Shown here piece by piece: positions 32,648-64,000 of a stretch of DNA of 64,000 bases (positions are counted from its first letter, which is position 1; every line of letters starts with the position of its first letter). A model generated the notes under the pieces. The model had not been told where the DNA came from, did no database searches, and saw only the letters and a program-made list of their open reading frames with translations. Origin of the DNA: an uncultured Chloroflexia bacterium (GTDB taxonomy: Bacteria; Chloroflexota; Anaerolineae; Anaerolineales; UBA4823); contig CAWBUW010000002.1 in the NCBI GenBank assembly GCA_963792075.1, positions 466,850 through 530,849 of the forward strand, read 5' to 3'. The position numbers were made by a program, and so were the translations under genes.

Positions 32648-33153
32648 ATGGATTCCCACTGGTACGCCCTCCGTTGTAAACCCCGTAAGGAAGAGGTGGT
32701 CTGGAAGCAGGTGAGCGATCAAGGGTTTGAGGTGTTTTATCCCCGTTTACGGGTGAATCCGGTGAACCCTCGCGCCCGAAAGATAAAACCTTATTTTCCG
32801 GGCTACCTTTTTGTTCGCCTGGATTTGGCCGTCCTGGGAACTTCTGCTTTCCAATGGATGCCTCACACAATAGGGCTGGTTTCCTTCGGCGGTGAACCTG
32901 CTGCCGTGCCAGATAACCTGATCTTTGCTGTGCGCAAGCGAGTAGAAGAAATCGCAGAGGTGGGGGGGAAATATTTGATGGGCTAAAATCGGGTGATGCG
33001 GTTTCGATTGATTATGGGCCCTTCAGGGGTTATGAGGCTATCTTCGATGCTCGTGTCCCCGGCAGTGAACGTGTGAAAGTGATGCTGATCTGGCTGGATT
33101 CCCGCCAGATCCCGGTAGAATTGGATGTATCCAGTATCCGCCAAAAGAAGTAG
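32648..33153 (+). pseudogene. NusG/RfaH-like transcription antiterminator paralog, split at a G7 run (possibly a sequencing indel)
   Basis: The NGN domain (WYALRCKPRKEE...) stops at 32984-32986. The KOW domain (LKSGDAVSIDYGPFRGYEAIF...) continues in another frame to TAG 33151-33153. One extra G at 32962-32968 joins them. Confidence 0.8.
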
Positions 33154-33205
33154 AGTTCGGGCGAAGTGGGTAAATGCCTGAAAATATAAGATTGGAGAGC
33201 TGAAA

Positions 33206-34269
33206 ATGAAAAAAGCTTTAATCACAGGTATTACTGGACAGGACGGCTCGTACCTGGCTGAGTTGTTATTGTCCAAAGAGTATGAAGTTCATGGGATGAT
33301 CCGCCGGGCGAGCACCTTCAATACTCGCCGCATTGACCATCTCTACAACGATCCGCATAACAAGGTGAACCTTTATTTGCATTACGGTGACCTGGCCAGC
33401 GGCGGTTCCTTGACCGACATGGTCTATTCGATCCAGCCAGATGAGATTTATAATTTGGCTGCGCAATCTCACGTGCGCGTGAGCTTTGATCTGCCCGATT
33501 ATACGGGAGACATTACCGGCCTGGGCACCATCCGTTTGTTGGAAGCAATACGCAAGAGTGGGATCAAGACCCGTATGTACCAGGCTTCATCCAGCGAGAT
33601 GTTCGGCAGCGCCAGGCCCCCGCAGAGCGAGACGACAGCTTTCGAGCCCCAGAGCCCCTACGCAGCCGCCAAGGTTTATTCCTATTGGGTGACGCGGAAT
33701 TACCGCCAGGGCTATCAGATGTTTGCTTCGAACGGGATTTTATTCAACCACGAGTCCCCCGTCGCGGCGAAACCTTCGTTACCCGGAAAATTACGCGTGC
33801 CCTGGCTGCGATCAAGGCCGGCAAACAGGATTTCCTCTACCTGGGCAACCTGGATTCCAAGCGTGACTGGGGCTACGCACCTGACTATGTGGCAGCCATG
33901 TGGAAGATGATGGAGCAGGATCATGCCGATGATTTTGTCATTGGCACAGGTGAATCGCACTCGATCCGGGAATTCCTGGATGAATCCTTTGGCTACGTGG
34001 ATATGGATTGGCACCAGTATGTGCGCATCGATCCCAAGTACTTCCGCCCAACTGAGGTGGATTATTTGCAGGCAGATCCCGCCAAAGCGCGCCAGAATTT
34101 AGACTGGGAACCGCGCGTTTTCTTCAAAGACCTGGTGCGTATCATGGTGGATGCTGACCTGGAGCTGGAGGGCCTGGAGTCTCCCGGTGAAGGCAAGAAA
34201 CTGTTGGAAGTTCACCATGGCAAATGGCACCGTTGGGACTCACAGGTTGTGAGCATGGAGCGCCCATAA
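33206..34269 (+). pseudogene. gmd: GDP-mannose 4,6-dehydratase, split at a C5 run (possibly a sequencing indel)
   Basis: [12 protein letters not shown]...NHESP in one frame, then [12 protein letters not shown]... in the next. One extra C at 33756-33760 restores it. Confidence 0.85.
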
Positions 34270-34288
34270 AGTGTTCCAGAACCACTGA

Positions 34289-34330
34289 AGGGGTGCACTA
34301 AAAAGTTGTTGGTATGTGTGTGCGCGGGAA
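34289..34330 (+). repeat. truncated left half of a family 2 element
   Basis: GGGGTGCACTAAAAAGTTGTTGGTATGTGTGTGCGCGGG matches the left arm of 8713-8803 and the 1294 hairpin. No right arm is present. Confidence 0.5.
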
Positions 34331-34339
34331 GGTGGATAA

Positions 34340-34459
34340 TGTCTGATCAAAAGTTCAAACTCTCAGAAGATTGGCTGGCGGTTATCCTGGCATTTGTCTT
34401 GATCTTGCTGTCCGCCATTGGCGTGTTAGGCAAAAACGGCATCCCAATCAAGTTCTGAA
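34340..34459 (+). CDS. small single-TM protein (39 aa), absent from the ORF track
   Basis: AAGGTGG before the ATG. MSDQKFKLSEDWLAVILAFVLILLSAIGVLGKNGIPIKF. Lies 18 nt upstream of the transporter gene. Confidence 0.35.
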
Positions 34460-34477
34460 AGGTACCAGGAGGCAGGC

Positions 34478-35554
34478 ATGAACGAGAAGATAAAAACAGA
34501 GCAGCCTGATAACCGCACCATTCAGACGGTAGCCGGGCTTCTGGTGGTGGTGGTCCTTTCCATCATAGCCTGGTGGGTAACGAATTGGGTTTACCAGATC
34601 AAGCTTCCCTGGGGCATCCCAGGGAAAGCCTTGGAATACCCGTTATGGGCGGCACTGATGGGGCTTCTGGGGAACGTGGTGCTGAAATTAACAGGCTGGC
34701 ACGCTTACCTCCGGCCGGGTATGCGCACCGAGTTGTTTTTGAAAACCGGCCTGGTCTTGTTGGGCGCGGGGATTAACCTGGCGGTCCTGGTAAGCTACGG
34801 CTCGCTAGCTGCGCTGCAAGGGTTGATCATGATCACCAGTGTGTTCTTCTTCAGTTGGTGGCTGGGTGGGCGTTTTGGCCTGGATGATAAGCTGCGCGCG
34901 GTGATGTCCACAGCCGTCTCGGTCTGCGGTGTTTCAGCGGCGATTGCTGCGGCCGGTTCGGTGCTGGCGAAAAAAGAGCAGGTGACTTACGTAACCACGC
35001 TGGTCATCCTTACCGCGCTGCCGCTCATGGTATTTGCGCCTCTGGCAGCCGGCGCCATGCAGCTTCCTGAGCCGGTGGCTGGCGCCTGGTTCGGTGGCAA
35101 TATTGACACCACGGCCGCGGTGGTGGGCGCCGGGACGATCTATGGCGAAAAGGCCCAGGAAACCGCAACGATTGTCAAGACCACCCAAAACGCCTTGATC
35201 GGCGTGGTGGCTTTTTTGCTCGCCTTATATTTTGCTCTACATAGCGGCGAAACTGCGGGGAAACGCCCCTCCATAAAGCTGATCTGGGATCGTTTTCCGA
35301 AGTTTGTGCTCGGTTTTGTGCTCGCTTCGATCTTGTTTTCGGTGCACATGATTGACGGTGGCAAGGGTACCGCGATTGAAGCGCTGAAGAACTGGGCTTT
35401 CACCCTGGCTTTTGTCTCGATGGGCCTGGAGATGTCCACCAGTGACCTTAAGAGCATGGGCTGGCGACCGCTGGCAGTATTCTTGATCGTGACCGTCTTC
35501 AATACGCTTCTGGCGTTGGGTGTAGCCTGGGCATTATTTGGTGGGCAGGGATAA
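34478..35554 (+). CDS. YeiH/UPF0324 family membrane protein (putative sulfate exporter family)
   Basis: 358-aa polytopic protein with family-like composition. AGGAGG before the ATG. Confidence 0.65.
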   Translation: MNEKIKTEQPDNRTIQTVAGLLVVVVLSIIAWWVTNWVYQIKLPWGIPGKALEYPLWAALMGLLGNVVLKLTGWHAYLRPGMRTELFLKTGLVLLGAGINLAVLVSYGSLAALQGLIMITSVFFFSWWLGGRFGLDDKLRAVMSTAVSVCGVSAAIAAAGSVLAKKEQVTYVTTLVILTALPLMVFAPLAAGAMQLPEPVAGAWFGGNIDTTAAVVGAGTIYGEKAQETATIVKTTQNALIGVVAFLLALYFALHSGETAGKRPSIKLIWDRFPKFVLGFVLASILFSVHMIDGGKGTAIEALKNWAFTLAFVSMGLEMSTSDLKSMGWRPLAVFLIVTVFNTLLALGVAWALFGGQG

Positions 35555-35597
35555 TCTTAGGACCTGACCGAAAGGGATATTGGGGAGAGGAGTTTAA

Positions 35598-36683
35598 GTG
35601 AGGAATATTTTAGTGACAGGCGGCGCGGGGTTTATCGGCTCGAACTTTGTGCGCTTTATCCAGCAAGCTGAGCCAGACGTACAGGTCGTCAACCTGGATG
35701 TACTGACCTATGCCGGCAGTCTGGAAAACTTGAAGGACTTGCCTGTTCCTGAAAAGCACGTCTTTATTCAGGGCGATATTTGCGACCGCGCCCTGCTGGA
35801 GAGCCTGCTGCGCCAGTATCAGATCGATACCGTGGTGCACTTTGCCGCCGAGACGCATGTAGATCGCTCGATCCTCGGCCCGGGGCAGTTCATCCAAACG
35901 AACATCATTGGGACTTTTACGCTGCTCGAAGCAGTGCGCCAGTACTGGTTGAGCGAAAAGGCGCTCAAGGGCGCTCCGGTACGCTTCCATCATATTTCCA
36001 CCGACGAAGTTTTTGGTTCGCTGGATTCAGACGCGCCGGCCTGGACCGAAGAGACCCCTTACGCACCCAATTCACCTTATGCTGCTTCGAAAGCGGCCAG
36101 TGACCACCTGGTTCGTTCTTATGGGCATACCTACGGGCTGCCCTACTCGATTTCGAACTGTTCTAACAATTATGGCCCTTACCAGTTCCCGGAAAAATTG
36201 ATCCCGCTGATGATTTTAAACGCGTATCACGGAGAACCGCTGCCCATCTATGGGGATGGAGGCCAGATCCGAGATTGGCTGTACGTGGAAGACCACTGCG
36301 AAGCGATCTGGCGGATTCTGAGCAAGGGGCACCCGGGGCAGACCTATAACATCGGCGGTGGAGCTCAGCCTACCAACCTATTGGTTATCGAGCAGTTATG
36401 CAGCCAGATGGATGAGCTCTATCCCGATTCGCCGCATGCGCCCCACCGGTCGTTAATGCGCTTTGTAGCCGATCGTCCTGGCCATGACCGGCGGTATGCG
36501 ATCGATTTTGGGAAAATTCAGCAAGAGTTAGGTTGGCAGCCGCGCCAGTCGTTTGGCAGTGGTCTGCAGAAAACGGTGGCCTGGTACCTGGACCATCCTG
36601 ATTGGGTGGCGAAGGCCCAGCAGCAGGGTGATTACAAGGCTTGGGTGCAGCGCAATTATACGCAGAGAGAATCGGAGAATTGA
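35598..36683 (+). CDS. rfbB: dTDP-glucose 4,6-dehydratase
   Basis: [12 protein letters not shown] and [15 protein letters not shown] motifs. GTG start after GAGGAG. Confidence 0.9.
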
Positions 36684-36687
36684 AGAA

Positions 36688-37992
36688 ATGAAGCAAATAT
36701 GTGTCATCGGTGTTGGCTATGTGGGGCTGGTCACCGCAGCGATTTTTGCAGACCTGGGCAATCGCGTGATTGGGCTGGATATTTCGGCTGAAAAAATTGC
36801 CGGTTTGAAAGCAGGCGTCATGCCGATTTACGAGCCGGGATTGGCCGAAATCGTCAGCCATAACGTACATGCCGGACGCCTATCTTTTACCACTTCTTAC
36901 GATGAAGCTTTGAAAGATGTTGAATTTGTTTTTATCGGCGTCGGCACACCCTCTGGGTCGGACGGCGAGGCAGATTTGCGTTATGTGCGCCAGGTAGCTC
37001 AGTCCATCGCCGAGCACATGATCGCGCCGTTGATCCTCATCGACAAATCCACCGTTCCGGTAGGCACAGGCGAGTGGGTTGGGGATATTGTGCGTGCACA
37101 CCAGCCGCAGCCAATTCCTTTCTCGGTGGTTTCCTGCCCGGAATTCCTGCGCGAAGGCTCGGCAATCAGTGACAGCCTTAACCCCCACCGCACCGTGATT
37201 GGTTCCTCAGACCGGGCAGCCGCGGAACGTGTTGCCCAACTGCATATGCCGCTGCGCGCACCTATCATGATCACCGATCTGCGTACGGCCGAGATGATCA
37301 AATACGCCTCGAACGCTTTCCTGGCTACCAAGATATCTTTCATTAACGAAATCGCCAATATCTGTGAAGCCTTGGGCGCAGATGTTAAAGAGGTGGCTGC
37401 GGGCATGGGCTATGATAAGCGCATTGGCCCACAATTTCTTGACGCTGGCCTGGGCTATGGCGGCTCTTGTTTCCCCAAGGATGTCAAGGCCCTGGCCTAC
37501 ATGGCCGCTGAGAGCGGCCGTCACCCGCAACTGCTGCACGCTGTGATGGCGATCAATGACGACCGCCGGCCCATGGTGGTTCATCGCCTGAATGAAATGT
37601 TGTCCGGGTTGGAAGGCAAGACAGTTGGCTTGCTGGGCCTGGCTTTCAAACCGAACACGGATGATATGCGCGATGCTCCAGCCATCGACATTGCCCGGGC
37701 GCTGATTTCACAGGGGGCTGTGGTCAAGGCTTATGATCCGGTAGCTATGCCCACTGCGGCTCCGATCATGCCCGAGGTGTTGATGCAGGAGGATCCGTAT
37801 ACACTGGCTGAAGGCTGTGATGCACTTGTTGTGGTTACCGAGTGGAATGAGTTCAAACAGCTTGACCTGGAACGGCTACGCGATTTGATGAACCAGCCCG
37901 TTTTGCTGGATGGGCGGAACATTTATGATCCCAAGCAAATGGCAGCTCTCAAATTTACCTATCGAGGGATTGGACGCGGGCATGTGCTTTAG
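36688..37992 (+). CDS. ugd: UDP-glucose 6-dehydrogenase
   Basis: [13 protein letters not shown] and GGSCFPKD motifs. The start is taken at MKQICV. Confidence 0.9.
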
Positions 37993-38034: not shown

Positions 38035-39027
38035 TTGACCAAAGCGTTAATTTTAGGTATCAATGGTCAGGATGGCTCCTACCTGTCCGAACTGCTGCTG
38101 GCTAAAGGCTACACCATCGTGGGCTGGCTTCCTACAGGGGTTCCCACCCCTTTAGATAATATTGCGCATTTACTAGGTCCAGGCGAGACGGCCCAGGTGC
38201 AGCTTGTCCAGGGACATTTGAACGACCAGGCTGGCTTATATACACTGATCGAGGAGGTTCAACCAGATGAAGTGTATAACCTGGCGGCGCCTTCTTTTCC
38301 TGCAGGTTCGTGGGAGCAGGCCGCGATGGTCGGCGATATCGCCGGGCTCGGCGTAGCGCGCCTGCTTGACGCCGTCCGCCAGGCGCGCCCTCAAGCTCGC
38401 TTTTACCAGGCCTCTACCAGCGAAATGTTTGGCGAACCGGTGGAAACCCCGCAGTCGGAGCGCACCCCTTTCCATCCGCGCAATCCTTACGGCGTAGCCA
38501 AGCTCTACGCTCATTGGATGGTGGTTAACGCTCGTATTAAGTATGGGCTGTATGCCGTGAGTGGCATTCTATATAACCATGAAAGCCCGCGCCGTGGGCT
38601 TGAATTTGTCACCCGCAAGATCACACATACTGCTGCAAAGATAAAGCTGGGGTTGGCAGACCGGCTGGCGCTGGGCAACCTGGAAGCCCGGCGGGATTGG
38701 GGGTATGCCGGCGATTATGTCCAGGCCATCTGGGCGATGCTGCATCAGGAAGAGCCAGAAGACCTGGTGATTGGCACCGGGCAGGCGCGGACAGTAGGTG
38801 AGTTTTGTACACGGGCTTTTGGATGCCTGGGATTGGACGCAAAGGACTATGTTGTACAAGATCCCAATCTCTATCGCCCATCCGAGGGCCTGGACCTGGT
38901 GGCTGATCCCCGCCGGGCCAAAGAGAAATTGGGCTGGGTGTCAGGTACAAGCTTTGACCAAATGGTGCATAGGATGGTTGAACATGATATGAAACTACTA
39001 AGCTCTGAACTGGAAGGAAAAAATTAA
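38035..39027 (+). CDS. gmd: GDP-mannose 4,6-dehydratase (second copy)
   Basis: ILGINGQDGSYLSELLL...YNHESPRRG. TTG start after GGGAGG. Confidence 0.85.
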   Translation: MTKALILGINGQDGSYLSELLLAKGYTIVGWLPTGVPTPLDNIAHLLGPGETAQVQLVQGHLNDQAGLYTLIEEVQPDEVYNLAAPSFPAGSWEQAAMVGDIAGLGVARLLDAVRQARPQARFYQASTSEMFGEPVETPQSERTPFHPRNPYGVAKLYAHWMVVNARIKYGLYAVSGILYNHESPRRGLEFVTRKITHTAAKIKLGLADRLALGNLEARRDWGYAGDYVQAIWAMLHQEEPEDLVIGTGQARTVGEFCTRAFGCLGLDAKDYVVQDPNLYRPSEGLDLVADPRRAKEKLGWVSGTSFDQMVHRMVEHDMKLLSSELEGKN

Positions 39028-39028: not shown

Positions 39029-41151
<2,123 letters not shown>

Positions 41152-42127: not shown

Positions 42128-42140
42128 TCAAGGAGCCAAA

Positions 42141-49955: not shown

Positions 49956-50474
49956 ATGCCTTCAATCTTACTCGTGTGTACCGCAAATATCTGCCGTTCC
50001 CCGATGGCAGAAGCCATCCTTAAAGATCAGCTTTCTCGACGCCCGGATGCAGCGCAGTGGCAGGTGGCATCCGCCGGCACCTGGGCGCTGGATGGCCGCG
50101 GGGCTGCGTTGGGCACCCGAGACGCTCTCCGTGACCTGGGATTGACCGCGGAAGGACACGTCGCCCGCACGGTCACGCTGGATTTACTGCAAACGTTTGA
50201 CCTCATCCTGACCATGGAACGCGGGCAGCAAGAGGCATTACAGGTTGAATTTCCCCAGGTAGCTTCACGGATCTCCCTGCTGGCCGAGATGGTGGGCGCT
50301 CGTTTCGATATCCAGGATCCAATTGCCGGCACGCAGGCGGATTTCCGCGCGACGGCGCAGGAGCTGCTGCAGCTCCTGACCCAGGCTATGCACACCATCA
50401 CCCAGACTGCCACCCGGAATGCGGCGCTGCGCCCGGGGATGAGCGGGGATGATGAGGGTAGGAATCTCCTGTAA
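49956..50474 (+). CDS. low-molecular-weight protein-tyrosine phosphatase
   Basis: CTANICRS (CX5R-S) P-loop at the N-terminus. Confidence 0.88.
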   Translation: MPSILLVCTANICRSPMAEAILKDQLSRRPDAAQWQVASAGTWALDGRGAALGTRDALRDLGLTAEGHVARTVTLDLLQTFDLILTMERGQQEALQVEFPQVASRISLLAEMVGARFDIQDPIAGTQADFRATAQELLQLLTQAMHTITQTATRNAALRPGMSGDDEGRNLL

Positions 50475-55305: not shown

Positions 55306-55965
55306 TTGTTAGAGGTGAATGAAGTGTTGGATCAAAGTCAATTGAGCCAGGGGATTGACGCCGGAGATACCGGATCTAGTACAACGCAGGCAAACAGCGA
55401 TGAAGCGGTGCTGGCTCTTGCGGTCGAAGGTGACCAGGAAGCTTTTGGCATCCTTTATGAACGTTACGTAGGACGGATCTACAGTTATATTTATTATCGC
55501 ACCGGGAACCATCATGATGCTGAGGATTTGACCGCTCGTGTTTTTATCCGGGCGATCCGTAGTATCGTCAAGTACCAGGACCGCGGCCTGCCCATTTCCG
55601 CCTGGCTGTACCGGATTGCGCATAACCTGGTCGCGAACTGGCACCGTGATCGCAGCCGCCGCCCGGAGATTGTCTTGGATGAGCGCCTGGCATTTTACCC
55701 CAGCGCAGAGCATCCGGAAATAACGATGTTGAGAAATGAGGAGCAAGACCGCTTAATGAGGATCATCCGCAAACAGCCCCAGGATCGCCAACAGCTTTTG
55801 ATCTTGAAATTCGTGGACCATTTATCCAATGCGGAGATCGGGCAGATCATGGGACGTACCGAAGGCGCGGTTAAGAGCCTGTACCACCGTACTTTATTGT
55901 CTCTGCGTGACGAATTAGGCGAGTTCGCTGTCAATACGATGGAAGGAACATCAGGAGAAACGTAA
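55306..55965 (+). CDS. ECF-type RNA polymerase sigma factor
   Basis: Region 2 (DAEDLTARVFIRA) and region 4 (LSNAEIGQIMGRTEGAVKSLYHR). The start codon is uncertain. Confidence 0.85.
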   Translation: MLEVNEVLDQSQLSQGIDAGDTGSSTTQANSDEAVLALAVEGDQEAFGILYERYVGRIYSYIYYRTGNHHDAEDLTARVFIRAIRSIVKYQDRGLPISAWLYRIAHNLVANWHRDRSRRPEIVLDERLAFYPSAEHPEITMLRNEEQDRLMRIIRKQPQDRQQLLILKFVDHLSNAEIGQIMGRTEGAVKSLYHRTLLSLRDELGEFAVNTMEGTSGET

Positions 55966-56286
55966 ATGAAAAAAACATTTACATCGCCGTTTACCAGACC
56001 AGGCCAGGTGGATGAAATCCAGCCGGATGAGACTGCGGAGCTCGAGCGGCTTTTGCTTGGGCAGCTCGCGCCGGTAAGACCTCGCCAGGATTACGTCCAT
56101 GACCTGGGCAAGCGGCTGGCGGACAAAGTGCTGCCGGTGGTTGCCGAAGAGCGTCAGCGAGCGGATCAAATCGACCTGTGGCAAGGGCTTTTACTGATTG
56201 CTGCAGGGGTGGTCAGCGGGATCCTGATGGTTTTATTCGGTGTGCGCATGGTGCGAAACGTTTCTGTGGCGCGCCAGGCGCGGTAG
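55966..56286 (+). CDS. putative single-TM anti-sigma factor
   Basis: Its ATG directly abuts the sigma gene stop codon (no spacer). 106 aa with one TM helix near the C-terminus. Confidence 0.55.
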   Translation: MKKTFTSPFTRPGQVDEIQPDETAELERLLLGQLAPVRPRQDYVHDLGKRLADKVLPVVAEERQRADQIDLWQGLLLIAAGVVSGILMVLFGVRMVRNVSVARQAR

Positions 56287-56369: not shown

Positions 56370-56415
56370 GGGATCAATTTTGCGGTGAATCCGCAAAATT
56401 GATCCCTTTTTATTT
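56370..56415 (+). terminator. intrinsic terminator at a convergent junction
   Basis: 16-bp perfect stem GGGATCAATTTTGCGG/CCGCAAAATTGATCCC, then TTTTTATTT. Confidence 0.7.
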
Positions 56416-56727
56416 AATGAGCAGTTGTTGCGCCAACCAGCGCGCCTCGGCGATCAGGTCGGCCTCGATGGGGAGCCGGTAAGCCTCATCGACTTTGAGC
56501 AAAAAATGGCCGGCCACGCGCCGCACCTCTGCGGGCAGGTCCGCCAGGCCTTCCAGCGCGCGCAGCTGATCGTACGCACTGCGGCTGCGCGCGACCTGGC
56601 CGCGTGCTTCCAGGTATGCCCGCGCGGCGATCCCGGCCGCCCGCCTGGCGCAGACGCGGGCCCGCCCCTCGTTACCGTCCCGGCGGGCTGCCTCGGCCAG
56701 GGCTATTTCGGCTTCAAAATCTGGCAT
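56410..56727 (-). CDS. small helical protein with an RX4H (HEPN-like) motif
   Basis: 105 aa starting at MPDFEAEIALAE. Contains RRVAGH. The ORF-track N-terminus reads through a hairpin. Confidence 0.4.
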   Translation of the reverse strand: MPDFEAEIALAEAARRDGNEGRARVCARRAAGIAARAYLEARGQVARSRSAYDQLRALEGLADLPAEVRRVAGHFLLKVDEAYRLPIEADLIAEARWLAQQLLIK

Positions 56728-56735
56728 ATAGATTA

Positions 56736-56782
56736 TTTGGGGTTTATTTTGGGCGGCGGAGCCGCCCAAAATAAACCCCAAA
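56736..56782 (+). repeat. 22-bp perfect hairpin filling an intercistronic gap
   Basis: TTTGGGGTTTATTTTGGGCGGC gga GCCGCCCAAAATAAACCCCAAA. Confidence 0.9.
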
Positions 56783-56787: not shown

Positions 56788-58647
56788 CTATTTGAATCTG
56801 GCGAAGAAGGAGCGTTCTTTCGCTGCCTCTGCAACCGCCGGCTCTTTGTGATTGCCGTTCCCATTGCTGCCATTCTTCCCGGGGGAATAATTATACCCGT
56901 GGGAGTAGTAATAATACGACGAATAGCGGTACTTACCGTAGTAGTGCGCTGCTTTGCGGGCAATCGGGTTGAGGACGACCCCCAGAATGCGAGCGCCCGA
57001 ACGGTGAAGCTGCTCCAGCATGGCCTGCGCCGAGTCGATCTTTGTCTTTCCCGGCTCGATGATCATAATGACGCCATCCACGCGCGCCGAAAGCACCACC
57101 GGATCCGTCACGATCGAAGGTGGGCTGTCTAAGATCACCACGTCATAATTCTCGCTGAGCTGGTCCAGGATCTGGGTCATGCGCTCGGAGGCCAGGAGCT
57201 CGGTCGGGTTCGGGGGGATTTCTCCACTGGGGATTACGGTGATTTCCGGGTCTCCCCAGGTAACGAAGGCGGCCACGTCGTGTATATTGTGCCGGAACAG
57301 GTCGGTCAGCCCCACCCGGTTGGCCAGGTTGAGCTTTTGGTGCAGAGAGGGACGGCGAAGGTCTGCATCCAGCAAAGCGACTTTCTTGCCGCCTTGCGCG
57401 ATCACCATTGCCAGGTTGATCGCCACGGTGGTCTTGCCTTCGCTGGGGCCTGAGCTGGTGACCAGGATCGTGCGCAGGGGTTTATCCACGCTGGCAAATT
57501 CCAGGTTGGTGCGCAGTGCCCGGAAGGCCTCGGCAATGGGTGAGCGCGGCTGATCGGCCACGTAGGCGGCGCCATCTGCCTGCGAGTCCTTTTCCATTTC
57601 CCCGATCAGGCCGATGGTGGGCAGCTTCAGGGCACGCGCCACATCCTCGGGCGTCTTGAGCGTATCGTCCAGGTACTCTACCAGGAAGGCGATGCCGCCG
57701 GCCAGGGCCAGGCCCATCACCAACCCCAGCATAAGGTTTTGTACCGGCTGCGGCTGGACCGGATGGGTGGGCAGCGGCGCGCTTTCGATCTGGATCACGT
57801 TCGTGGTGCTTTGCAGCCGCGCCAGGCGGATGCTCTCGTAATTGTTCAGCAGGTTCGAGTAGATCTGCTGGTACAGCGCCAGCGTGGTCTGAAGCTGCGA
57901 CTGGCGGATCGATTGGCTGCTCGTTCCGGTAGAACTGCCCAGGACAATCGTCTGCTGGTAGGCCTGCTGGTACAGGTTCAGGCGGGTTTCCAGCGCAGAG
58001 AGATAATCCTCTTTCTCGGCCAGGGTATCGCCGGTCAGCAACTCCATCTCTTTGCGCAGGTCCCGGATCTCGATCTCCAGCGCGGCGATCTCCGTTTCTA
58101 AAGTCGTTTGCTGCTTTTTCAGGCTTTCTTCAGATTGCTGTGCCATCTGGTCTTGCACCGAGATGATCTGCGCCTCGATCTGGTCGATCTGCCGCTGCAG
58201 GTTTTCCTCGGCGGTGATAAAGCGGCTGGTCTGGGTGAGCTCGTTCTGCTCGATGAACACCTTGATCAGTGTGTTGGCGATGAGCTGCGCCCGCGCCGGG
58301 TCGCTGTCCTTGACCGTAATATCCAGGATCAGCATGTCGGTCATCTGTTTGACGCTGACCTGGTCTTTGTTTACCGAAAATCCCAATTCCTGCCCGACCG
58401 CCTCCAGGACTGGCTGGGTGACGATCAACTGCGTATAGGTTTTGGCAAGCTGCAGGTCGCTATAAATGTAATAATAATCCGTGCCGCGGCTTTCGGGAGG
58501 GCGGGAAACCATCACCTTCGTGGTCGTCTGGTAGATGGTGGGTTGGTACAGCGTGTATACATACCCCCCCGCGACGCCCAGCACCGCCCCTACCACCACT
58601 AACCACGCCCATTTCTGGACCAATGTAAAAATTTGTCGAATATCCAT
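56788..58647 (-). CDS. polysaccharide co-polymerase / tyrosine autokinase (Wzz domain plus BY-kinase)
   Basis: N-terminal TM and Wzz-like coiled region, P-loop GPSEGKT, and Tyr-rich tail HYYGKYRYSSYYYYSHGYNY. Confidence 0.88.
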   Translation of the reverse strand: MDIRQIFTLVQKWAWLVVVGAVLGVAGGYVYTLYQPTIYQTTTKVMVSRPPESRGTDYYYIYSDLQLAKTYTQLIVTQPVLEAVGQELGFSVNKDQVSVKQMTDMLILDITVKDSDPARAQLIANTLIKVFIEQNELTQTSRFITAEENLQRQIDQIEAQIISVQDQMAQQSEESLKKQQTTLETEIAALEIEIRDLRKEMELLTGDTLAEKEDYLSALETRLNLYQQAYQQTIVLGSSTGTSSQSIRQSQLQTTLALYQQIYSNLLNNYESIRLARLQSTTNVIQIESAPLPTHPVQPQPVQNLMLGLVMGLALAGGIAFLVEYLDDTLKTPEDVARALKLPTIGLIGEMEKDSQADGAAYVADQPRSPIAEAFRALRTNLEFASVDKPLRTILVTSSGPSEGKTTVAINLAMVIAQGGKKVALLDADLRRPSLHQKLNLANRVGLTDLFRHNIHDVAAFVTWGDPEITVIPSGEIPPNPTELLASERMTQILDQLSENYDVVILDSPPSIVTDPVVLSARVDGVIMIIEPGKTKIDSAQAMLEQLHRSGARILGVVLNPIARKAAHYYGKYRYSSYYYYSHGYNYSPGKNGSNGNGNHKEPAVAEAAKERSFFARFK

Positions 58648-58662: not shown

Positions 58663-58667
58663 GAGGT

Positions 58668-58733: not shown

Positions 58734-59850
58734 TTACCGCGCTACCACCAGCATCACCTGCTCGTCGGTCATGCTGGGGTAGAGAGGGAGCGTCACTTCC
58801 CGCGCCGCGACGGCTTCGGTCACCGGCAGCTTCACGTCCGGGTACAGCCTGCGATAATGCGTGAACAGGTGGATCGGGGGGTAGTGGATGCTCGTCTGGA
58901 TGCCGGCGGCGCGCAGGGTGTCAATAAAGCGCAGGCGGTCCGTGCCCTCGGGCAGCAAGGCCGGGAAAATGTGGTAGGCTGGCTCCCACCCCGTGCCCAT
59001 CTGCCGGAAGGGCAGCCCCAGCCCGCTCCCCGCCAGCGACTGCCAGTACGCCTCGGTGATCTCTCGCCTCCGGGCGTTGTTGGCGGCCAGCTTCCTTAAC
59101 TGCACCAGCCCCAGCGCGGAGCGTATCTCGTCCAGGCGGTAGTTGTAGCCCATGTCCACCACGTCGTAGGTGTAGGCGTGGCCCTTGTGGCGGTCCCAGG
59201 TCAGGCTGGTCATGCCATGCGAGCGCAGCAGGCGCACCTTCTCGGCAATCCCGTCGTCATCCGTGACCAGCATGCCGCCCTCGCCGGTGGACAGGTTCTT
59301 GTTGGAGAAGAAGCTGAAGCAGCCTACCTGCCCCCACGTGCCCAGCGCTTTCTCGCCCAGCCCGGCGCCCGGCGCGTGCGCGGCATCCTCGATGACCTTT
59401 AGCCCATATTTCTGGGCAACTGCCAGGATCTCGGGCATGCGGCAGGGATAGCCTCCGTAGTGCATCACGATGATCGCCTTGGTGCGCGGTGTGATCTGCG
59501 CCTCGATCGATTCCGGCGAGATGGTCAGCTCCTCCTCCCCGCAAACCTCGGCAAAACGCACCTGCGCCCCGGTGTACAGGACGGCGTTCGTGGTGGCCAC
59601 AAAGCTCAGCGAAGGCGCAATCACTTCGTCGCCCGGGCCAATGCCCAGCGCCAGGCAGGCCAGGTGCAGCGCCACGGTCGCGTTGGACACGGCCAGCGCA
59701 TGCTTGGACCCCGTGCCGCGCGGCGAACTCGCGCTCGAATTCCTGCGTCACGGCGCCCATGGTCAGCCACTTGCTGCGCAGCACCTGCAGCACGGCCTGC
59801 TCTTCCTCGATGCCAAAATCCAGGTCTGCTAAGGGAACTTTCCAATCCAT
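58734..59850 (-). pseudogene. DegT/DnrJ/EryC1/StrS-family sugar aminotransferase, N-terminus in another frame (possibly a sequencing indel)
   Basis: MDWKVPLADL...EFAARHG is in one frame and SKHALAVSNATVALHLA... in another. The junction is the C4 run at 59709-59712. FSFFSNKNLSTGEGG motif present. Confidence 0.8.
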
Positions 59851-59853
59851 ACG

Positions 59854-60564
59854 CTAATCCTCTCCCAAAATCTGCTCGCGCAGCGCGTCGAAATCCTGCA
59901 CTGCCTGTTCGTAATCGTCCGGCCTCCCCAGGTCCTGCCAATAGCCTTCGAAAGGATAGCCCTTCACCCGCTCGCCGGCTGCAATCAGCTTCAGGACCAG
60001 GTCGGGGAAATCCAGGTAAGTGTTGTGCGGGATATATTCCAACACGCGCGGCTCGAACACGTAAATCCCCATGCTGACGAAGAAGTCGTAGCGCGGCTTT
60101 TCAAGGTATCCAATGATCTCGTGGTCCCCATCGAACTGGATCACCCCCAGGTCCACCTTGACCTGCCGGGCGTGGGTGGCAATGGTCGCCGCGGCCCCGC
60201 TCTGGCGGTGGGAGGCGATCAGCGCCCGCAGGTCGAGCGTGGTCAGCACGTCGCCGTTGGTGATCAAGAAGGTGTCGTCCAGCCCTTCGATCAGCGACAG
60301 CGGCCCGGCCGTCCCCAGCGGCTGTTCCTCGAAGCTGTAACGGATCTTCAGCCCCAGCCGCCGGCCATCTTGAAAAAATGCTTTGAGCAGCTCGGCCAGG
60401 TGGCCCACGGTCAGGATCACCTCATCCACCCCGGCCTTTTTCATCTGCCGCAGCAAGATCTCCAAAATGGGCATATCGCCGATCGGCATCAAGGGCTTGG
60501 GGAGTATTTTTGTATAGGGCGCCAGACGTGTGCCTTTGCCCCCTGCGAGAACGACTGCTTTCAT
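59854..60564 (-). CDS. sugar-phosphate nucleotidyltransferase
   Basis: LAGGKGTRLAPYT..LPKPL motif. GGAGGA before the ATG at 60564. Confidence 0.85.
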   Translation of the reverse strand: MKAVVLAGGKGTRLAPYTKILPKPLMPIGDMPILEILLRQMKKAGVDEVILTVGHLAELLKAFFQDGRRLGLKIRYSFEEQPLGTAGPLSLIEGLDDTFLITNGDVLTTLDLRALIASHRQSGAAATIATHARQVKVDLGVIQFDGDHEIIGYLEKPRYDFFVSMGIYVFEPRVLEYIPHNTYLDFPDLVLKLIAAGERVKGYPFEGYWQDLGRPDDYEQAVQDFDALREQILGED

Positions 60565-60579
60565 TTTTCCTCCAATGGT

Positions 60580-60618: not shown

Positions 60619-60620
60619 GT

Positions 60621-61613
60621 TTAAACCATGTATTGATCGGGCTTGAATAATCCCGGGTTCTCCCGCACCCAGTCGATGGTGCGCGCCAGGCCCTGGCGTA
60701 AACTCACCTGAGGGGTCCAGCCCAGGCGCTCCCGCGCCAGGCGGTTATCGGAGAGCAGGCGCCTGACCTCGCTCTTCACCGGGCGCAGGCGCTCGGCCTC
60801 CACTTCGATGCGCACCGGGCGGCCGACCAGCTCCAGGATCAGGTCGGCCAGCTCGCCAATGCGCACCTCGCTGCCCACCCCCAGGTTGATCGTCTCGCCC
60901 TCGATGCCGGGCGTCTCGGCGGCTTTGAGGAACCCGGCCACGGTATCGCTGACGTAGGTCAGGTCGCGGCGGGCGTCCAGGTTGCCCAGGCGGATCACGT
61001 CCCGGGTCAGCGCCTGCGAGATGATGGTGGGGATCACGGCGCGGGCGGACTGGCGCGGGCCGTAGGTGTTGAACGGGCGCAGCGTGACCACGGGCAGGTC
61101 GTACGAGCGGTAGAAGGCCTCGGCCAGCTTATCGGCGCCGATCTTGCTGGCGGAATAGGGCGACTGCCCCTGCAGCGGGTGGTCCTCGCCGATCGGGACG
61201 CGCAGGGCGGTGCCGTACACTTCGCTGGTGGAGGTGTGCACGATGCGCTCCACGCCCGCCGCCTGGGCGGCCAGCAGCACGTTCAGCGTGCCGATCACGT
61301 TCGTTTCCACCACTTCCGCCGGGTGGCGGTACGAGTAGGGGATGGCGATCAGCGCGCCCAGGTGGAGCACGGTTTGCATGCCGGCCACGGCGCTGCGCAT
61401 GGCGGCCTGGTCACGCAGGTCGCCGGCCACCAGCTCCACCTGCGCCAGCGCTTCCGGCGGGAGCTGGTGCAGCAGCCCGGCATCGCCGCGCGAGTTGTAG
61501 CGCACAAACGCCCGCACCTGCGCCCCCTCGCCTACCAGGCGCTCCACCAGGTGCGAGCCGATGAACCCGCCCGCGCCGGTGACCAGGACCTTGCGAGATT
61601 GCCAAAATGCCAT
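60621..61613 (-). CDS. SDR-family NAD-dependent sugar epimerase/dehydratase
   Basis: VTGAGGFIGSHL and YSASKIGADKL motifs. The start is taken at MAFWQS; the ORF-track extension is repeat-encoded. Confidence 0.85.
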   Translation of the reverse strand: MAFWQSRKVLVTGAGGFIGSHLVERLVGEGAQVRAFVRYNSRGDAGLLHQLPPEALAQVELVAGDLRDQAAMRSAVAGMQTVLHLGALIAIPYSYRHPAEVVETNVIGTLNVLLAAQAAGVERIVHTSTSEVYGTALRVPIGEDHPLQGQSPYSASKIGADKLAEAFYRSYDLPVVTLRPFNTYGPRQSARAVIPTIISQALTRDVIRLGNLDARRDLTYVSDTVAGFLKAAETPGIEGETINLGVGSEVRIGELADLILELVGRPVRIEVEAERLRPVKSEVRRLLSDNRLARERLGWTPQVSLRQGLARTIDWVRENPGLFKPDQYMV

Positions 61614-61614
61614 G

Positions 61615-61806
61615 ATCTTTTCCTTTCCCCCTCCCCCCTTGGGGGAGGGCAGGTTGCGAAGCAACCGGGGTGAGGGAGAATAGACGTCCCCTCACCCCTA
61701 CCCTCTCCCCAGGCTGCGCAGCAGCCGTTGGGCGATGGGCAGGATCTTTACCCCTCCCCCGTTGGGGGAGGGCAGGTTGCGGAGCAACCGTGGGGTGATG
61801 GAGGAG
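61615..61806 (+). repeat. two ~62-nt direct copies of a GC-rich hairpin unit plus linker hairpins
   Basis: The units at 61615-61678 and 61743-61806 each contain CCCTCCCCC-N3-GGGGGAGGG, GGTTGC-N3-GCAACC and GGGGTGA.GGAG. Confidence 0.85.
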
Positions 61807-63571
61807 CTGGAGGTGCGGGCTCATTCGCTTCGCGCTGGCGCACCGAGTTGGCGTAGACGGCCTCGCGCAGGTTGCGGATCTGCTCTTGCAGCGCGGCCAG
61901 GTCGCCCCGGTAAGCGGTTTCTTCCAGCGTCTCCAGCCAGTCTTCGATGCGCATGGGGGTCAGCCTCACCAGGCACAGGTCGCAGGGCAGCGGCTCGCCG
62001 CGCGGCCGGGTGATGGCAGACGCAGGCGCGGAGGCCGTGGCGGCCTTGGCCGCTTTGCGCGCCACCTGCTCGTGCGCGTTCATGGCGTACAGCGCCGCGG
62101 CGACGTCCGGCCATAACAGCACCTGCGCCCCGGTCAGCCCGCACAGCGCCAGCAGGCGTTTGCGTTCCGCGCGGGTGATGTTGTGGATGGCAAACACCAC
62201 CACGCCCACGTCCTTCTTCTTCACCACGGAAGCGATGTCCGCCGTCCGCCCCAGCACGTTCAGGCCGCGGATGCGGCTGCCCTGCTTGTTGAGGTCGTCG
62301 TCCACGTAGCCCACGATCTCGAACATATCGGCGTAATGGCCGTGGCCGAGCTTCCAGGCGGCGTATTGGCCGGTCTCGCCGCCGCCGACGACGAGCACGC
62401 GCTCGCGCGCCAGGGGCTGCGAGCCGCGCAAGGCCAGCCAGCGCGTGGCCAGGCCGGTGACCAGCCTCCCACGGTAGCGCGTGGCGATGTACCCCAGGAG
62501 GGAGAAGGCCGCAGCCATCAGCAGCAGCCCGTCCGGCACGAAATGCCCGTAGACCGCCGTGGCTGCCAGGACGTTATTGATGATCAAGGCGATGACCGTG
62601 GCCAACACCACACCGGGCAGCAGCTCGCCCATGTCGTTGGCTCCGGCGGCTGACCAGGAGATGCGGTTGGTCCCCACCAGCACGTTGGTGAGGCTGAAGA
62701 GCAGGGCGAACAACAGGGTCGCCTGCAGCATCTGCGGCCAGCCGCGGTCCAGCGGAGCCTGCGCCCGCCAGGCCAGCGCCGTAAAGGCCACGGCTGCCGT
62801 GGTGGTCACCAGGTCCATCAGGAACCAGCGCACGTGGCGGTGCATGAGCACCTGCAGCGGCCCGCGCAGCAGGCGCACCTCATCCGGCGCCTGTCCTTGC
62901 CACGGCGCCTGCCCCAGCCGCGGCACCAGCACCAGCAGGGTCCAGAAGATGATGTCCAGGTCGGTCCAAAACGAGCGGTGGCGCACGTACAACTGGTCCA
63001 GGCGCAGCTTGCCGGGCAGGATCTCCTCCAGGTAAGTCTGCATCATATCGATGCCCTGCAGGCGGTTCTCTTCATCGTGGTACATCACCGAAGCCGGGCT
63101 GGTGATGCCCGGGCGCACCGAGAGCACCTCCGCAGCCACTTCGGCGGGCCAGTCGCGGGCAATCTCGGGGTCTTCGGGGCGGGGGCCGACCAGGCTCATC
63201 TCGCCCTTGAGCACGTTCCAAAGCTGGGGCAGCTCGTTGAGCTTGGTATCGCGCAGCCACTTGCCCAGGGGCGTAATGCGCCCGTCGTCCTGGCCCGTCA
63301 CGCGCGGCCCGGCGTAGCTGGCGGCCTCTTCGCGCATGGTGCGGAACTTGAGGATGCGGAAGACCTTGCCGCCGCGGCCCATGCGCGGCCCGCGGTAGAG
63401 CGCCGGCCCGGGCGAATCGCGCCGCACCAGCCAGGCCACCCAGAGCAAGACCGGCCAGAGCAGCAGCAGCCCGAGCAGCGCGGCCAGGACGTCGAACAGG
63501 CGCTTGACCGGCCCCTGCCCGCGCAGCAGGGGAGGAAGCAAGCCCGGACGGGTGGCGGTAGTCTCAGCCAT
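61748..63571 (-). CDS. polyprenyl-phosphate glycosyl-1-phosphate transferase with C-terminal TM and Rossmann-like extension
   Basis: The Bac_transf core (KFRTM...LNELPQLWNVLKGEMSLVGPRP) is at the N-terminus, followed by TM helices and VLVVGGGETG...VGYVDDD. Confidence 0.8.
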   Translation of the reverse strand: MAETTATRPGLLPPLLRGQGPVKRLFDVLAALLGLLLLWPVLLWVAWLVRRDSPGPALYRGPRMGRGGKVFRILKFRTMREEAASYAGPRVTGQDDGRITPLGKWLRDTKLNELPQLWNVLKGEMSLVGPRPEDPEIARDWPAEVAAEVLSVRPGITSPASVMYHDEENRLQGIDMMQTYLEEILPGKLRLDQLYVRHRSFWTDLDIIFWTLLVLVPRLGQAPWQGQAPDEVRLLRGPLQVLMHRHVRWFLMDLVTTTAAVAFTALAWRAQAPLDRGWPQMLQATLLFALLFSLTNVLVGTNRISWSAAGANDMGELLPGVVLATVIALIINNVLAATAVYGHFVPDGLLLMAAAFSLLGYIATRYRGRLVTGLATRWLALRGSQPLARERVLVVGGGETGQYAAWKLGHGHYADMFEIVGYVDDDLNKQGSRIRGLNVLGRTADIASVVKKKDVGVVVFAIHNITRAERKRLLALCGLTGAQVLLWPDVAAALYAMNAHEQVARKAAKAATASAPASAITRPRGEPLPCDLCLVRLTPMRIEDWLETLEETAYRGDLAALQEQIRNLREAVYANSVRQREANEPAPPAPPSPHGCSATCPPPTGEG

Positions 63572-63589
63572 AGGCGCAGCTTTCACTCA

Positions 63590-63630
63590 CCCTTCCCCCA
63601 TTGGGGGAAGGGCCGGGGATGAGGGAGGGG
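63590..63630 (+). repeat. third copy of the GC-rich hairpin unit
   Basis: CCCTTCCCCC att GGGGGAAGGG followed by CCGGGGATGAGGGAGGGG. Confidence 0.8.
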
Positions 63631-63682
63631 ATAAAATGATTGCAGCACGGATGTTCTGCTCGCATAAGAGGCGAAAGATAAT

Positions 63683-64000
63683 CTAAGGTTGGATGGCGGC
63701 GAAATAGTGGGTATTGAACAGGCCCAGCTTTTCGAGCGCAGCGCACAGCAGCCAGGAGATTGGCACGAGCCGCCTGGCGATCGGCGGCGCCAGCGTAATC
63801 TTGTGCAGCTCCACCTGGCAGCCGGCAAACAAGCGCCGGATCTCTGCCGGGCGGATGCCGCGCGTTTGGGGGTTGGTAGGGTTCAGCCAAAAATCGTACC
63901 ACAGGATCAGTCCGCCGGGGCGCAGCACGCGTATCATCTCAGTCGCCAAATCTTGCTTGATTGGGTCGGAGAGGATGGATGAAAATACGGTGTACTGCAT
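63683..64000 (-). CDS. class I SAM methyltransferase, C-terminal part (runs off the window)
   Basis: LRPGGLILWYDFW motif region. The ORF is open to the window edge. Confidence 0.6.
   Translation of the reverse strand: MQYTVFSSILSDPIKQDLATEMIRVLRPGGLILWYDFWLNPTNPQTRGIRPAEIRRLFAGCQVELHKITLAPPIARRLVPISWLLCAALEKLGLFNTHYFAAIQP

Follow-up and report, generated by a model that had tools for sequence, protein, structure and literature searches.

A probable Wzy-dependent surface heteropolysaccharide locus of Chloroflexota that includes two predicted GT-C glycosyltransferases

Systems that combine a GT-A lipid-sugar synthase, a flippase and a GT-C glycosyltransferase are established in streptococci (PMC11754754). 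In lactococci and streptococci, DUF2142 GT-Cs (WpsI/WpsJ) have been proposed as polymerases or transferases (PMC12599335, PMC9746298), and for archaeal glycosylation PF03706 proteins beside PMT/STT3-like enzymes have already been proposed (PMC5898192). A route from lipid-linked sugar through flippase to GT-C is thereby known from streptococci, lactococci and archaea, and the original prediction that a locus with such enzymes might represent an undescribed route does not stand. Here we analysed a 64,000-nucleotide stretch (the window, in which all positions are given), and consider it likely that its second half is a Wzy-dependent surface heteropolysaccharide locus of the Chloroflexota (Anaerolineales type), regulated by a BY-kinase and a low-molecular-weight phosphotyrosine phosphatase (LMW-PTP) and cut at its right-hand end by the window.

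The locus consists of two convergent operons. The plus-strand operon (32648–56286) has a dedicated NusG/RfaH-like factor at its head and carries nucleotide-sugar enzymes, a Wzy, a PF03706 flippase-like protein, a TagA-like GT26, a phosphatase, two GT-Cs, a GH-A-like lipoprotein, and an ECF sigma factor with a candidate anti-sigma factor. The minus-strand operon comes in from past 64000, in the order methyltransferase, phosphoglycosyl transferase (PGT), 4,6-dehydratase, nucleotidyltransferase, aminotransferase and BY-kinase. A strong hairpin (56370–56406, no strand assigned), with a 16-bp stem and T tracts, keeps the two apart. Pfam and NCBIfam searches largely bore out the gene content originally read from the translations, with four corrections: the PGT (61748–63571, minus strand) had been missed; five genes, those for the NusG paralog, gmd#1, DegT, Wzy and the lipoprotein hydrolase, proved to be split by 1-nt frameshifts; the minus-strand operon begins past the window edge; and both polytopic transferases have a true GT-C fold.

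The NusG/RfaH-like paralog (32648–33153; Pfam NusG, 7e-17), which RfaH and UpxY models match at scores under their cutoffs, has its NGN domain in one frame; beyond a G7 run (32962–32968) its KOW domain continues in the +2 frame. Its orthologue in the related locus L002 is intact (168 aa, 66% identical), and 21 related loci have the gene in the corresponding position. Loss of one nucleotide from a C run (33756–33760) divides GDP-mannose 4,6-dehydratase copy 1 (gmd#1, 33206–34269; PF16363) into two ORFs that cover PF16363 positions 1–188 and 186–332. The nucleotide-sugar genes that follow on the plus strand include rfbB, dTDP-glucose 4,6-dehydratase (35598–36683; TIGR01181, 487 bits, above cutoff), ugd, UDP-glucose 6-dehydrogenase (about 36691–37992; Pfam/NCBIfam), a second GDP-mannose 4,6-dehydratase (gmd#2, 38035–39027; PF16363, 369 bits; TIGR01472, 343 bits, under the 415-bit cutoff), wecB, UDP-GlcNAc 2-epimerase (39029–40183; TIGR00236, 485 bits) and wecC, UDP-ManNAc dehydrogenase (44363–45640; NF008286, 450 bits). 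Between wecB and wecC lie a GDP-L-fucose synthase-like (fcl-like) SDR (40180–41151; NF047922, 286 bits, below cutoff), an NDP-sugar epimerase/dehydratase SDR (41156–42127) whose full-length PDB match to the epimerase-type 6ZL6 (E=4e-54) makes it possibly a UDP-GlcA 4-epimerase, and a fusion of a zinc-type alcohol dehydrogenase with a GFO/IDH/MocA oxidoreductase (about 42126–44366; Pfam), which has a 746-aa orthologue in L001.

Further along the same strand, the Wzy_C polymerase/ligase-like protein (46873–48041) is split by a frameshift near 47516–47524, and its halves align with residues 6–209 and 210–371 of the intact Wzy of L004, the closest relative. The PF03706 membrane protein (MprF-flippase-like, TIGR00374; 48090–49205, Pfam/NCBIfam), previously named as a UPF0104 flippase-like protein in a locus with no visible Wzx, is indeed present, and in about 13 related loci its gene adjoins Wzy. 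No Wzx turned up in the window and only one among 56 related DUF2142 loci, so that a Wzx/Wzy pathway here has one of its defining parts missing or replaced. Next come a GT26 glycosyltransferase of the WecG/TagA family (49186–49953; TagA 7MPK, E=2.6e-35) and the LMW-PTP (49956–50474; Pfam), whose gene adjoins that for the DUF2142 protein in 44 of 83 related loci.

Two polytopic proteins that had been called GT-C-like have a true GT-C fold, judging from predicted structures and Foldseek searches and, for the second, also from its homologues. The 658-aa DUF2142 protein (50490–52466; PF09913, 47.9 bits, above cutoff; model pLDDT 92) matches Pmt1/2/4 and STT3, and an extracytoplasmic beta-sandwich (CBM-like) domain inserted at residues 274–467 matches CBM4/16. 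Across 52 homologues H39, E42 and H45 are invariant, and Y40, D41 and P43 nearly so. The GT39/PMT_2-like protein (52459–53769) is 436 aa long, shorter than the 473 aa of its ORF. By itself it yields a sub-threshold PMT_2 match only; its homologues either have PF13231 or go by the name GT39, its model (pLDDT 92.6) matches STT3, AglB, PglB, ArnT and AftB with E down to 1.6e-5, and D58-E59 is invariant. The lipoprotein (53787–55254), whose glycoside hydrolase domain is clan GH-A-like, has its lipobox and catalytic part in different frames owing to a frameshift around 53977–54029; orthologues in L001–L003 are intact and 48–62% identical. Its WEIGNEPD motif is conserved, its GH39/GH42 matches are weak, and the gene occurs in 51 of the 83 loci, often as tandem copies.

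On the minus strand, a 123-aa conserved protein (56410–56781; L001 orthologue 67% identical in a local alignment) adjoins a fusion of a Wzz/GNVR chain-length domain with the BY-kinase (56788–58647; Pfam/NCBIfam). The DegT-type sugar aminotransferase (58734–59850) is split near 59700 and has intact 378–381-aa orthologues in L001, L003 and L006; beyond it lie a sugar-1-phosphate nucleotidyltransferase (59854–60564; Pfam), an NDP-hexose 4,6-dehydratase-like SDR (60621–61613; PDB 1R66, E=2e-43) and the PGT, an initiating polyprenyl-phosphate enzyme with Bac_transf at its N terminus and transmembrane helices and a CoA_binding_3-like domain towards its C terminus. Among 120 listed homologues, of more than 4900 matches, lengths are 500–640 aa and query coverage 78–99%, and each one for which an organism is named comes from the Chloroflexota.

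The last gene, for a SAM-dependent methyltransferase (63683–64000, minus strand; C-terminal 105 aa), is cut by the window edge, so the minus-strand operon begins past 64000, as had been suspected, and the count of glycosyltransferases is censored there. Inside the window the reported scarcity of soluble glycosyltransferases holds literally: Pfam and NCBIfam place a GT2 or GT4 domain in none of the ORFs scanned across 1–64 kb. By comparison with relatives, this shortage is most likely an edge effect of a window that stops inside the operon. L004, whose methyltransferase and PGT are 72% and 68% identical to those of the window, has the order GT2-methyltransferase-Wzy-PGT; L067 has a 68% identical methyltransferase; and L006 and L007 have arrays of GT2 and GT4 genes 5′ of the PGT. 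In 16 metagenomic loci the PGT comes straight after the methyltransferase, which is the arrangement of the window, and all 14 of these that have upstream sequence encode a GT2 or GT4 no more than about 4 kb upstream of the pair; their remaining upstream ORFs include another 13 GT4 and 6 GT2. The original prediction had set its route against ordinary GT2/GT4 genes and a MOP-family flippase downstream: the former are expected past 64000 from relatives at 48–72% identity, the window itself ending there, and the latter did not turn up, the 25 families met most often upstream of the methyltransferase in related loci including no Wzx.

We propose that the PGT would begin a repeat unit by loading undecaprenyl phosphate, probably with the amino-dideoxy sugar that its three neighbour genes produce. 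GT2 and GT4 enzymes, whose genes are expected just beyond the window edge, would act with the GT26 to extend the unit in the cytoplasm with GDP-, UDP- and dTDP-sugars from the plus-strand genes. The lipid-linked unit would be flipped, the PF03706 protein being the sole locus-encoded candidate, and polymerised by Wzy under the control of the kinase and phosphatase. Outside the membrane, the two GT-Cs may act on lipid-linked donors to add side-branches or transfer the chain to an acceptor, and the lipoprotein hydrolase may trim or release the polymer.

Alternatively, the region might house two separate neighbouring systems, the minus-strand block and Wzy making an exopolysaccharide and the PTP-DUF2142-hydrolase core with the GT39-like enzyme forming a distinct system, for example for PMT-like glycosylation of envelope proteins or for attachment or remodelling of a wall polymer; we regard this as rather improbable. 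The halves can exist apart, given that about 20 genomes have NusG-gmd-(PF03706 or GT26)-PTP-DUF2142-hydrolase, with the core always after gap-pgk-tpi-NusG and no PGT/kinase block within 10 kb, and that L006 and L007 have the PGT block but lack DUF2142. In structure the 658-aa protein is best matched by protein O-mannosyltransferases, and its soluble domain is inserted between transmembrane blocks, as the MIR domain is in PMTs. However, at least ten Chloroflexota genomes (L012, L013, L020, L042, L043, L047, L058, L067, L076 and L086) carry both parts collinearly on a single strand, as PGT-SDR-NTP transferase-DegT-BY kinase-Wzy-(PF03706-GT26)-PTP-DUF2142-hydrolase, which argues for one pathway and not an accident of position. 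The widely conserved core also contributes the phosphatase that naturally partners the other block's BY-kinase, and in many loci, as in the window, Wzy belongs to the core side.

The five frameshifts could make the locus non-functional in the source organism, and their distribution (five 1-nt shifts in the 31 kb of the glycan locus, against none detected in 32 kb of upstream housekeeping genes, a half in which frameshifts were looked for less systematically) fits a decaying cluster that makes no product or an altered one. We think such decay unlikely: every shift falls at a short homopolymer, where long-read consensus errors typically arise (the source contig measures 826 kb), the rest of each split gene is well conserved without stops or other decay, and other intragenic homopolymer runs of at least 7 are unshifted.

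The original reading, in which GT-Cs build the glycan mainly outside the membrane from polyprenyl-phosphate single-sugar donors and hardly any GT-A or GT-B enzyme works in the cytoplasm, in the manner of mycobacterial arabinan, draws on the two GT-Cs that modelling supports, on further PMT_2 and GT87-like GT-Cs in related loci, on a DUF2142 core without GT2 or GT4 in L001, L002 and most of the 56 loci, and on the order PF03706, membrane-anchored GT2, GT-C, DUF2142 in L059 and L081 (where the PF03706 and GT2 ORF coordinates overlap by a few bases), but is highly improbable, because the polyprenyl-phosphate sugar synthase that it requires is absent from the window, the L059 GT2 is not specifically GtrB/ArnC-like, the PGT, Wzy and BY-kinase are a hallmark of block-wise assembly of cytoplasmically built units, and GT2/GT4 arrays adjoin the PGT block in all informative relatives.

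Four further genes lie on the plus strand. The gene for a YeiH-like (PF03601) membrane protein (34478–35554; Pfam) occurs in none of the 83 related loci and is probably an insertion, and that for an NTP_transf_5 protein (45668–46870; PF14907, 141 bits) occurs in one of them and is not a conserved member of the locus. The ECF sigma factor gene (55306–55965; Pfam) is kept downstream of the hydrolase in 8 loci, and the single-TM protein encoded after it (55966–56286) is a candidate anti-sigma factor.

We read the locus as a Wzy-type cluster that occurs across Chloroflexota, with its own NusG paralog, a flippase candidate of the MprF-like kind and a conserved core of phosphotyrosine phosphatase, DUF2142 protein and hydrolase. 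Pfam and NCBIfam scans, which covered all sizeable ORFs between 27 and 64 kb, mostly bore out the gene list of the original prediction, from which the initiating Bac_transf phosphoglycosyl transferase (PGT; 61748-63571, minus strand) had been missing. On the plus strand, CofD-gap-pgk-tpi (housekeeping genes) and the gene for a small membrane protein precede position 32648, where a NusG/RfaH-like paralog begins. Profile matches on the same strand include two GDP-mannose dehydratases, rfbB, ugd, wecB, an fcl-like SDR, a further epimerase-type SDR, an ADH/GFO fusion and wecC, together with an NTP_transf_5 protein, a Wzy_C protein, a PF03706 (MprF-flippase-like) protein, a TagA-family GT26 and a low-molecular-weight phosphotyrosine phosphatase (LMW-PTP). 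Also encoded on this strand are a 658-aa DUF2142 protein, a membrane protein of 436 aa, a glycoside-hydrolase-like lipoprotein, and an ECF sigma factor paired with a single-TM protein. Plus- and minus-strand genes converge at a 16-bp hairpin (56370-56406), and the minus strand encodes a methyltransferase cut by the window end, the PGT, a 4,6-dehydratase-like SDR, a sugar-1-phosphate nucleotidyltransferase, a DegT aminotransferase and a Wzz-BY-kinase fusion. Enzymes for GDP-6-deoxyhexose/fucose, UDP-GlcA, UDP-ManNAc(A), dTDP-4-keto-6-deoxyglucose and an NDP-amino-dideoxyhexose are all present, and UDP-GalA is possibly supplied alongside UDP-GlcA. An Rfam search of the window returned no RNA family.

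Scanning species-representative genomes with a DUF2142 alignment yielded 332 relatives and 80 loci that were kept, nearly all labelled as Chloroflexota lineages or uncultured bacteria and one as Nanoarchaeota. When the window proteins were mapped onto 83 loci, about 20 showed the order CofD-gap-pgk-tpi-membrane protein-NusG paralog-gmd/fcl-like-(PF03706 or GT26)-PTP-DUF2142-hydrolase. At least ten others carry, on a single strand, PGT-SDR-nucleotidyltransferase-DegT-BY kinase-Wzy-PF03706-GT26-PTP-DUF2142-hydrolase(s)-sigma, and the window has this second order with the PGT-to-kinase block inverted. The plus- and minus-strand genes could instead be read as two independent modules, but this reading is weakened by the collinearity of both parts on one strand in at least ten genomes. 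The neighbours of DUF2142 that recur most are the hydrolase (51 of the 83 loci, often as two to four tandem copies) and the PTP (44/83), followed by PF03706 (34/83), GT26 (32/83) and the GT39-like enzyme (8/83); further GT-C enzymes (PMT_2, GT87-like) often lie near DUF2142 in related loci. Two window genes are missing from nearly all related loci and resemble insertions specific to this lineage: those for a YeiH-like protein (34478-35554; 0/83) and the NTP_transf_5 protein (45668-46870; 1/83). Chloroflexota envelopes are little understood, and almost all such loci are known from uncultured genomes. As a locus with a single conserved place on the chromosome, downstream of gap-pgk-tpi and with its own NusG paralog, it is a good candidate for encoding a major envelope polymer of the group.

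The original prediction saw a fit to a Wzy-type pathway, and its parts are in place: PGT, Wzy, BY-kinase and PTP, with the NusG paralog at the head of the plus-strand operon. The kinase fusion matched Wzz, GNVR and the TIGR01007 kinase domain in Pfam and NCBIfam, and the cognate phosphatase (49956-50474, plus strand) matched LMWPc at 100.6 bits. The Wzy_C match (70.6 bits) lies in the second half of a gene that is split by a frameshift; the two halves of this gene align end to end with the intact Wzy of L004, a locus of the closest relative. The PGT scored 190 bits against Bac_transf and 277 bits against TIGR03025, the latter below the cutoff of 295.55 and matched in two stretches. Its N-terminal catalytic domain is followed by C-terminal TM helices and a CoA_binding_3-like domain, the reverse of the order in WbaP/WcaJ-type enzymes. 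We rejected a frameshift artefact as the source of this order because homologues among the matches listed (500-640 aa) cover 78-99% of the query, and they share the layout; those listed with an organism name are Chloroflexota. A scan of a genome-contig database with the PGT alone gave no match.

With Wzx/Wzy clusters of the BY-kinase/LMW-PTP kind (E. coli group 1 Wzc/Wzb; streptococcal cps type), the locus shares the Bac_transf PGT, Wzy_C, the Wzz-BY-kinase fusion, the LMW-PTP and many nucleotide-sugar genes, as well as, in relatives, GT2/GT4 arrays that adjoin the PGT. Unlike those clusters, it has no MOP-family Wzx, here and in nearly all relatives, its PGT domains are reversed and a NusG paralog leads it; the window further adds GT-C enzymes, GT26, the PF03706 protein and the hydrolase lipoprotein.

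Inside the window, GT26 is the sole cytoplasmic GT-A/GT-B enzyme, and no glycosyltransferase was found in the 32 kb of upstream housekeeping DNA. To that extent the proposed near-lack of soluble glycosyltransferases stands, but the count is censored by the window edge and does not establish glycosyltransferase poverty. The locus continues past 64000, as had been anticipated: the last ORF (63683-64000, minus strand), which reads towards the PGT, encodes the 105 C-terminal residues of a SAM methyltransferase, and the minus-strand operon therefore starts outside the window. In the closest relative (L001 and L004, from JGI metagenome 3300037461), L004 has the order GT2-methyltransferase-Wzy-PGT-SDR-nucleotidyltransferase, and its methyltransferase is 72% identical to the window fragment. 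Two further related loci, L006 and L007 (PGT 51-53% identical), have, immediately 5' of the PGT, a GT2 and at least three GT4 genes. Scanning metagenomes with the methyltransferase yielded 172 relatives, including 16 loci in which the PGT follows directly, as it does here; every one of the 14 that have upstream sequence (14/14) encodes a GT2 or GT4 within about 4 kb upstream, usually with the L004-type GT2 immediately adjacent and GT4s farther out. Upstream ORFs without a BLAST label add 13 GT4 and 6 GT2, and also include Wzy_C, beta-helix, CapK-like, acetyltransferase and sulfotransferase proteins.

Because GT2/GT4 genes occupy the syntenic position in L004, L006, L007 and all 14 loci, the near-absence of soluble glycosyltransferases in the window is, judged by sequence and synteny, best explained as an effect of the window end, and a nearly glycosyltransferase-free glycan locus should not be carried forward as a headline claim. 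Of the genes that the original prediction had named as evidence against itself if found downstream, GT2/GT4 genes do occur there in relatives, but no MOP-family flippase is among the commonest families there. The 12-TM proteins upstream of the methyltransferase, considered as Wzx candidates, were rejected as Wzy_C by Pfam. In six loci (L136, L145-L147, L152 and L153), a right-handed beta-helix protein of about 640 aa lies between GT2 and methyltransferase; the scanned representative, in L147, has a TAT signal, and the protein may be a polysaccharide lyase or epimerase.

The two polytopic proteins are, on their structural models, predicted glycosyltransferases of the GT-C fold. The 658-aa protein (50490-52466, plus strand) matches DUF2142 (PF09913) at 47.9 bits against a gathering cutoff of 30.1 bits, over profile positions 1-262 of 395, and many of its 110 homologues also match PMT_2. 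Its AlphaFold model, built on 52 homologues (pLDDT 92), matches the protein O-mannosyltransferases Pmt1/2/4 and STT3 in Foldseek with probability 1.0, and a 190-residue beta-sandwich between both TM blocks matches CBM4/CBM16 modules. For the 436-aa protein (52459-53769, plus strand) alone, the PMT_2 match is sub-threshold; many of its 502 homologues are labelled GT39 or ArnT-like, and its model (pLDDT 92.6) matches STT3, AglB, PglB, ArnT, Pmt4, ALG enzymes and AftB. Across the two proteins, the GT-C fold is matched with Foldseek probability 1.0 to PMT, STT3, ArnT and AftB. The first outer loop of the 658-aa protein carries an acidic Y-D-E-P motif in which E42 is invariant and Y40, D41 and P43 are nearly so, and that of the 436-aa protein an invariant acidic motif, D58-E59. 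As predicted glycosyltransferases, both proteins belong with glycosyl transfer, and of the GT-C-like polytopic proteins originally proposed these two are confirmed by models and Foldseek.

A UPF0104 flippase-like protein had been noted in place of a recognizable Wzx, and this stands: PF03706 is present (48090-49205, plus strand) and no scanned ORF of the window matches Polysacc_synt. Only 1 of 56 related DUF2142 loci has a Wzx, and the 25 commonest families among 119 ORFs 5' of the methyltransferase include none; the genome may carry a Wzx at another site. PF03706 directly follows Wzy in about 13 loci and is the only flippase-like candidate; no small dedicated flippase of the GtrA/ArnEF/GtcA type was found. 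In two loci (L059:1613-8325 and L081:3916-9174), the order is Wzy-PF03706-membrane-anchored GT2-GT-C-DUF2142-hydrolase, with PF03706 and GT2 ORF coordinates that overlap by a few bases. This arrangement looks like a three-component glycosylation set in which GT2 holds the place of the window's GT26. Membrane-anchored GT2s adjoin PF03706 in L059 and L081, and the methyltransferase in L004; those of L004 and L059, considered as Und-P-sugar synthases, are not specifically GtrB/ArnC-like.

Gtr and ArnC/ArnT are multi-component systems of transmembrane glycosylation. In the S. mutans SCC locus, likewise, a GT-A Und-P-sugar synthase, a flippase and a GT-C act jointly (SccN/SccM, SccP/SccQ; PMC11754754). 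This route is already established there, and the suggestion in the original prediction of an undescribed assembly route is not upheld. Our locus resembles the S. mutans type in that its polysaccharide genes include extracytoplasmic GT-Cs, with a flippase-like membrane protein alongside. It differs in that the window encodes no polyprenyl-phosphate sugar synthase (GtrB/ArnC/DPM1-type GT2), its flippase candidate is PF03706 and not of the GtrA/ArnEF type, and GT26 stands where L059 and L081 have a membrane GT2.

DUF2142 proteins of lactococcal and streptococcal wall polysaccharides have been proposed as the polymerase WpsI and WpsJ-like transferase, which would polymerize lipid-linked oligosaccharides or transfer them en bloc (PMC12599335, PMC9746298). 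The polytopic DUF2142 GT-C similarly sits in a surface polysaccharide cluster, whereas the Chloroflexota protein has a large CBM-like beta-sandwich insert and pairs with a PTP and hydrolase; the window has neither the ABC transporter of the rhamnan branch nor a WpsA/B-like GT2. For archaeal PF03706/UPF0104 proteins, the presence of PMT/STT3-like and AglD-like genes nearby has led to the prediction that they are flippases in glycosylation (PMC5898192), and the domain (PplT) is found fused to glycosyltransferases and O-antigen-ligase-like domains (bioRxiv 10.1101/2022.03.11.483950). Here too an MprF-flippase-like protein lies beside PMT/STT3-like GT-Cs, but in a bacterial, Wzy-associated context with GT26; a flippase role for glycolipids is a prediction in all of these cases.

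The likeness of GT26 and wecB to linkage-unit chemistry holds in part. As in TagO-TagA-MnaA systems, a TagA-family GT26 (E=2.6e-35 against the TagA structure 7MPK) co-occurs with UDP-ManNAc supply (wecB, wecC), but TagO/WecA, a TagGH-type ABC exporter and an LCP ligase are absent from the scanned ORFs of 1-64 kb and could be encoded elsewhere in the genome. The locus thus fits a Wzy-type pathway except for Wzx, and fails the TagO/TagA and lactococcal dual-chain systems on several defining parts.

In this locus, GT-C enzymes and a candidate flippase of the MprF-like kind accompany Wzy-type genes, and we envisage the following sequence. The PGT would begin the repeat unit, using the amino sugar that its three conserved neighbours supply, and GT2/GT4 enzymes encoded just outside the window would complete it together with GT26. 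The unit would then be flipped and polymerized by Wzy under the control of the kinase and phosphatase; GT-C enzymes could use lipid-linked donors outside the membrane to add branches or transfer the chain, and the hydrolase may trim or release the polymer. A bolder version, which we think rather unlikely, is that in Chloroflexota PF03706 beside Wzy takes over the role of Wzx and the DUF2142 GT-C either polymerizes the polymer that is exported or attaches it to the monoderm envelope. If true, this would be a previously uncharacterized export and attachment branch of Wzy-type pathways. If PF03706 does act as a flippase of lipid-linked glycans, pathways with no known flippase would gain one; an example is that of streptococcal Glc-P-Und, whose flippases are still unidentified (PMC11754754).

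Five genes, all within the glycan locus, are each interrupted at a short homopolymer by a single-base frameshift; no such shift was detected across the 32 kb of upstream housekeeping genes, and orthologues in relatives are intact. The frameshifts lie in the NusG paralog (G7 run, 32962-32968), the first gmd (C run, 33756-33760), Wzy (about 47520, within ~47516-47524), the hydrolase lipoprotein (~53977-54029) and DegT (~59700-59715). These frameshifts could reflect either real decay or consensus errors made where a long-read assembly crosses a strain-variable region. In the NusG paralog, an NGN domain is followed by a KOW domain that runs on in another frame to 33153. The protein scores under the RfaH and UpxY equivalog cutoffs and thus represents a separate subfamily. 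Its position is fixed in 21 related loci, where it follows gap-pgk-tpi and the small membrane protein and leads the polysaccharide operon. The window yielded no Rfam leader for it and no ops-like element. The hydrolase (53787-55254, plus strand), a GH-A-like lipoprotein, has its lipobox in the frame from 53787 and its catalytic part in that from about 53977, and its family assignment is tentative because sequence matches are weak (GH42, E=0.045; GH39, E=0.005).

Four related loci (L058, L068, L076 and L050) have three or four tandem paralogues of the hydrolase-like lipoprotein gene downstream of the DUF2142 homologue. A BacA/UppP undecaprenyl-diphosphate phosphatase gene (6133-6954, minus strand), about 26 kb upstream of the locus, is probably a housekeeping gene unrelated to it. 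Related loci also contain genes for sulfate activation (ATP sulfurylase/APS kinase) and for sulfotransferases (L002:5853-7595; L006:342-956 and 9069-9935), and some of the polymers of these loci may therefore be sulfated.
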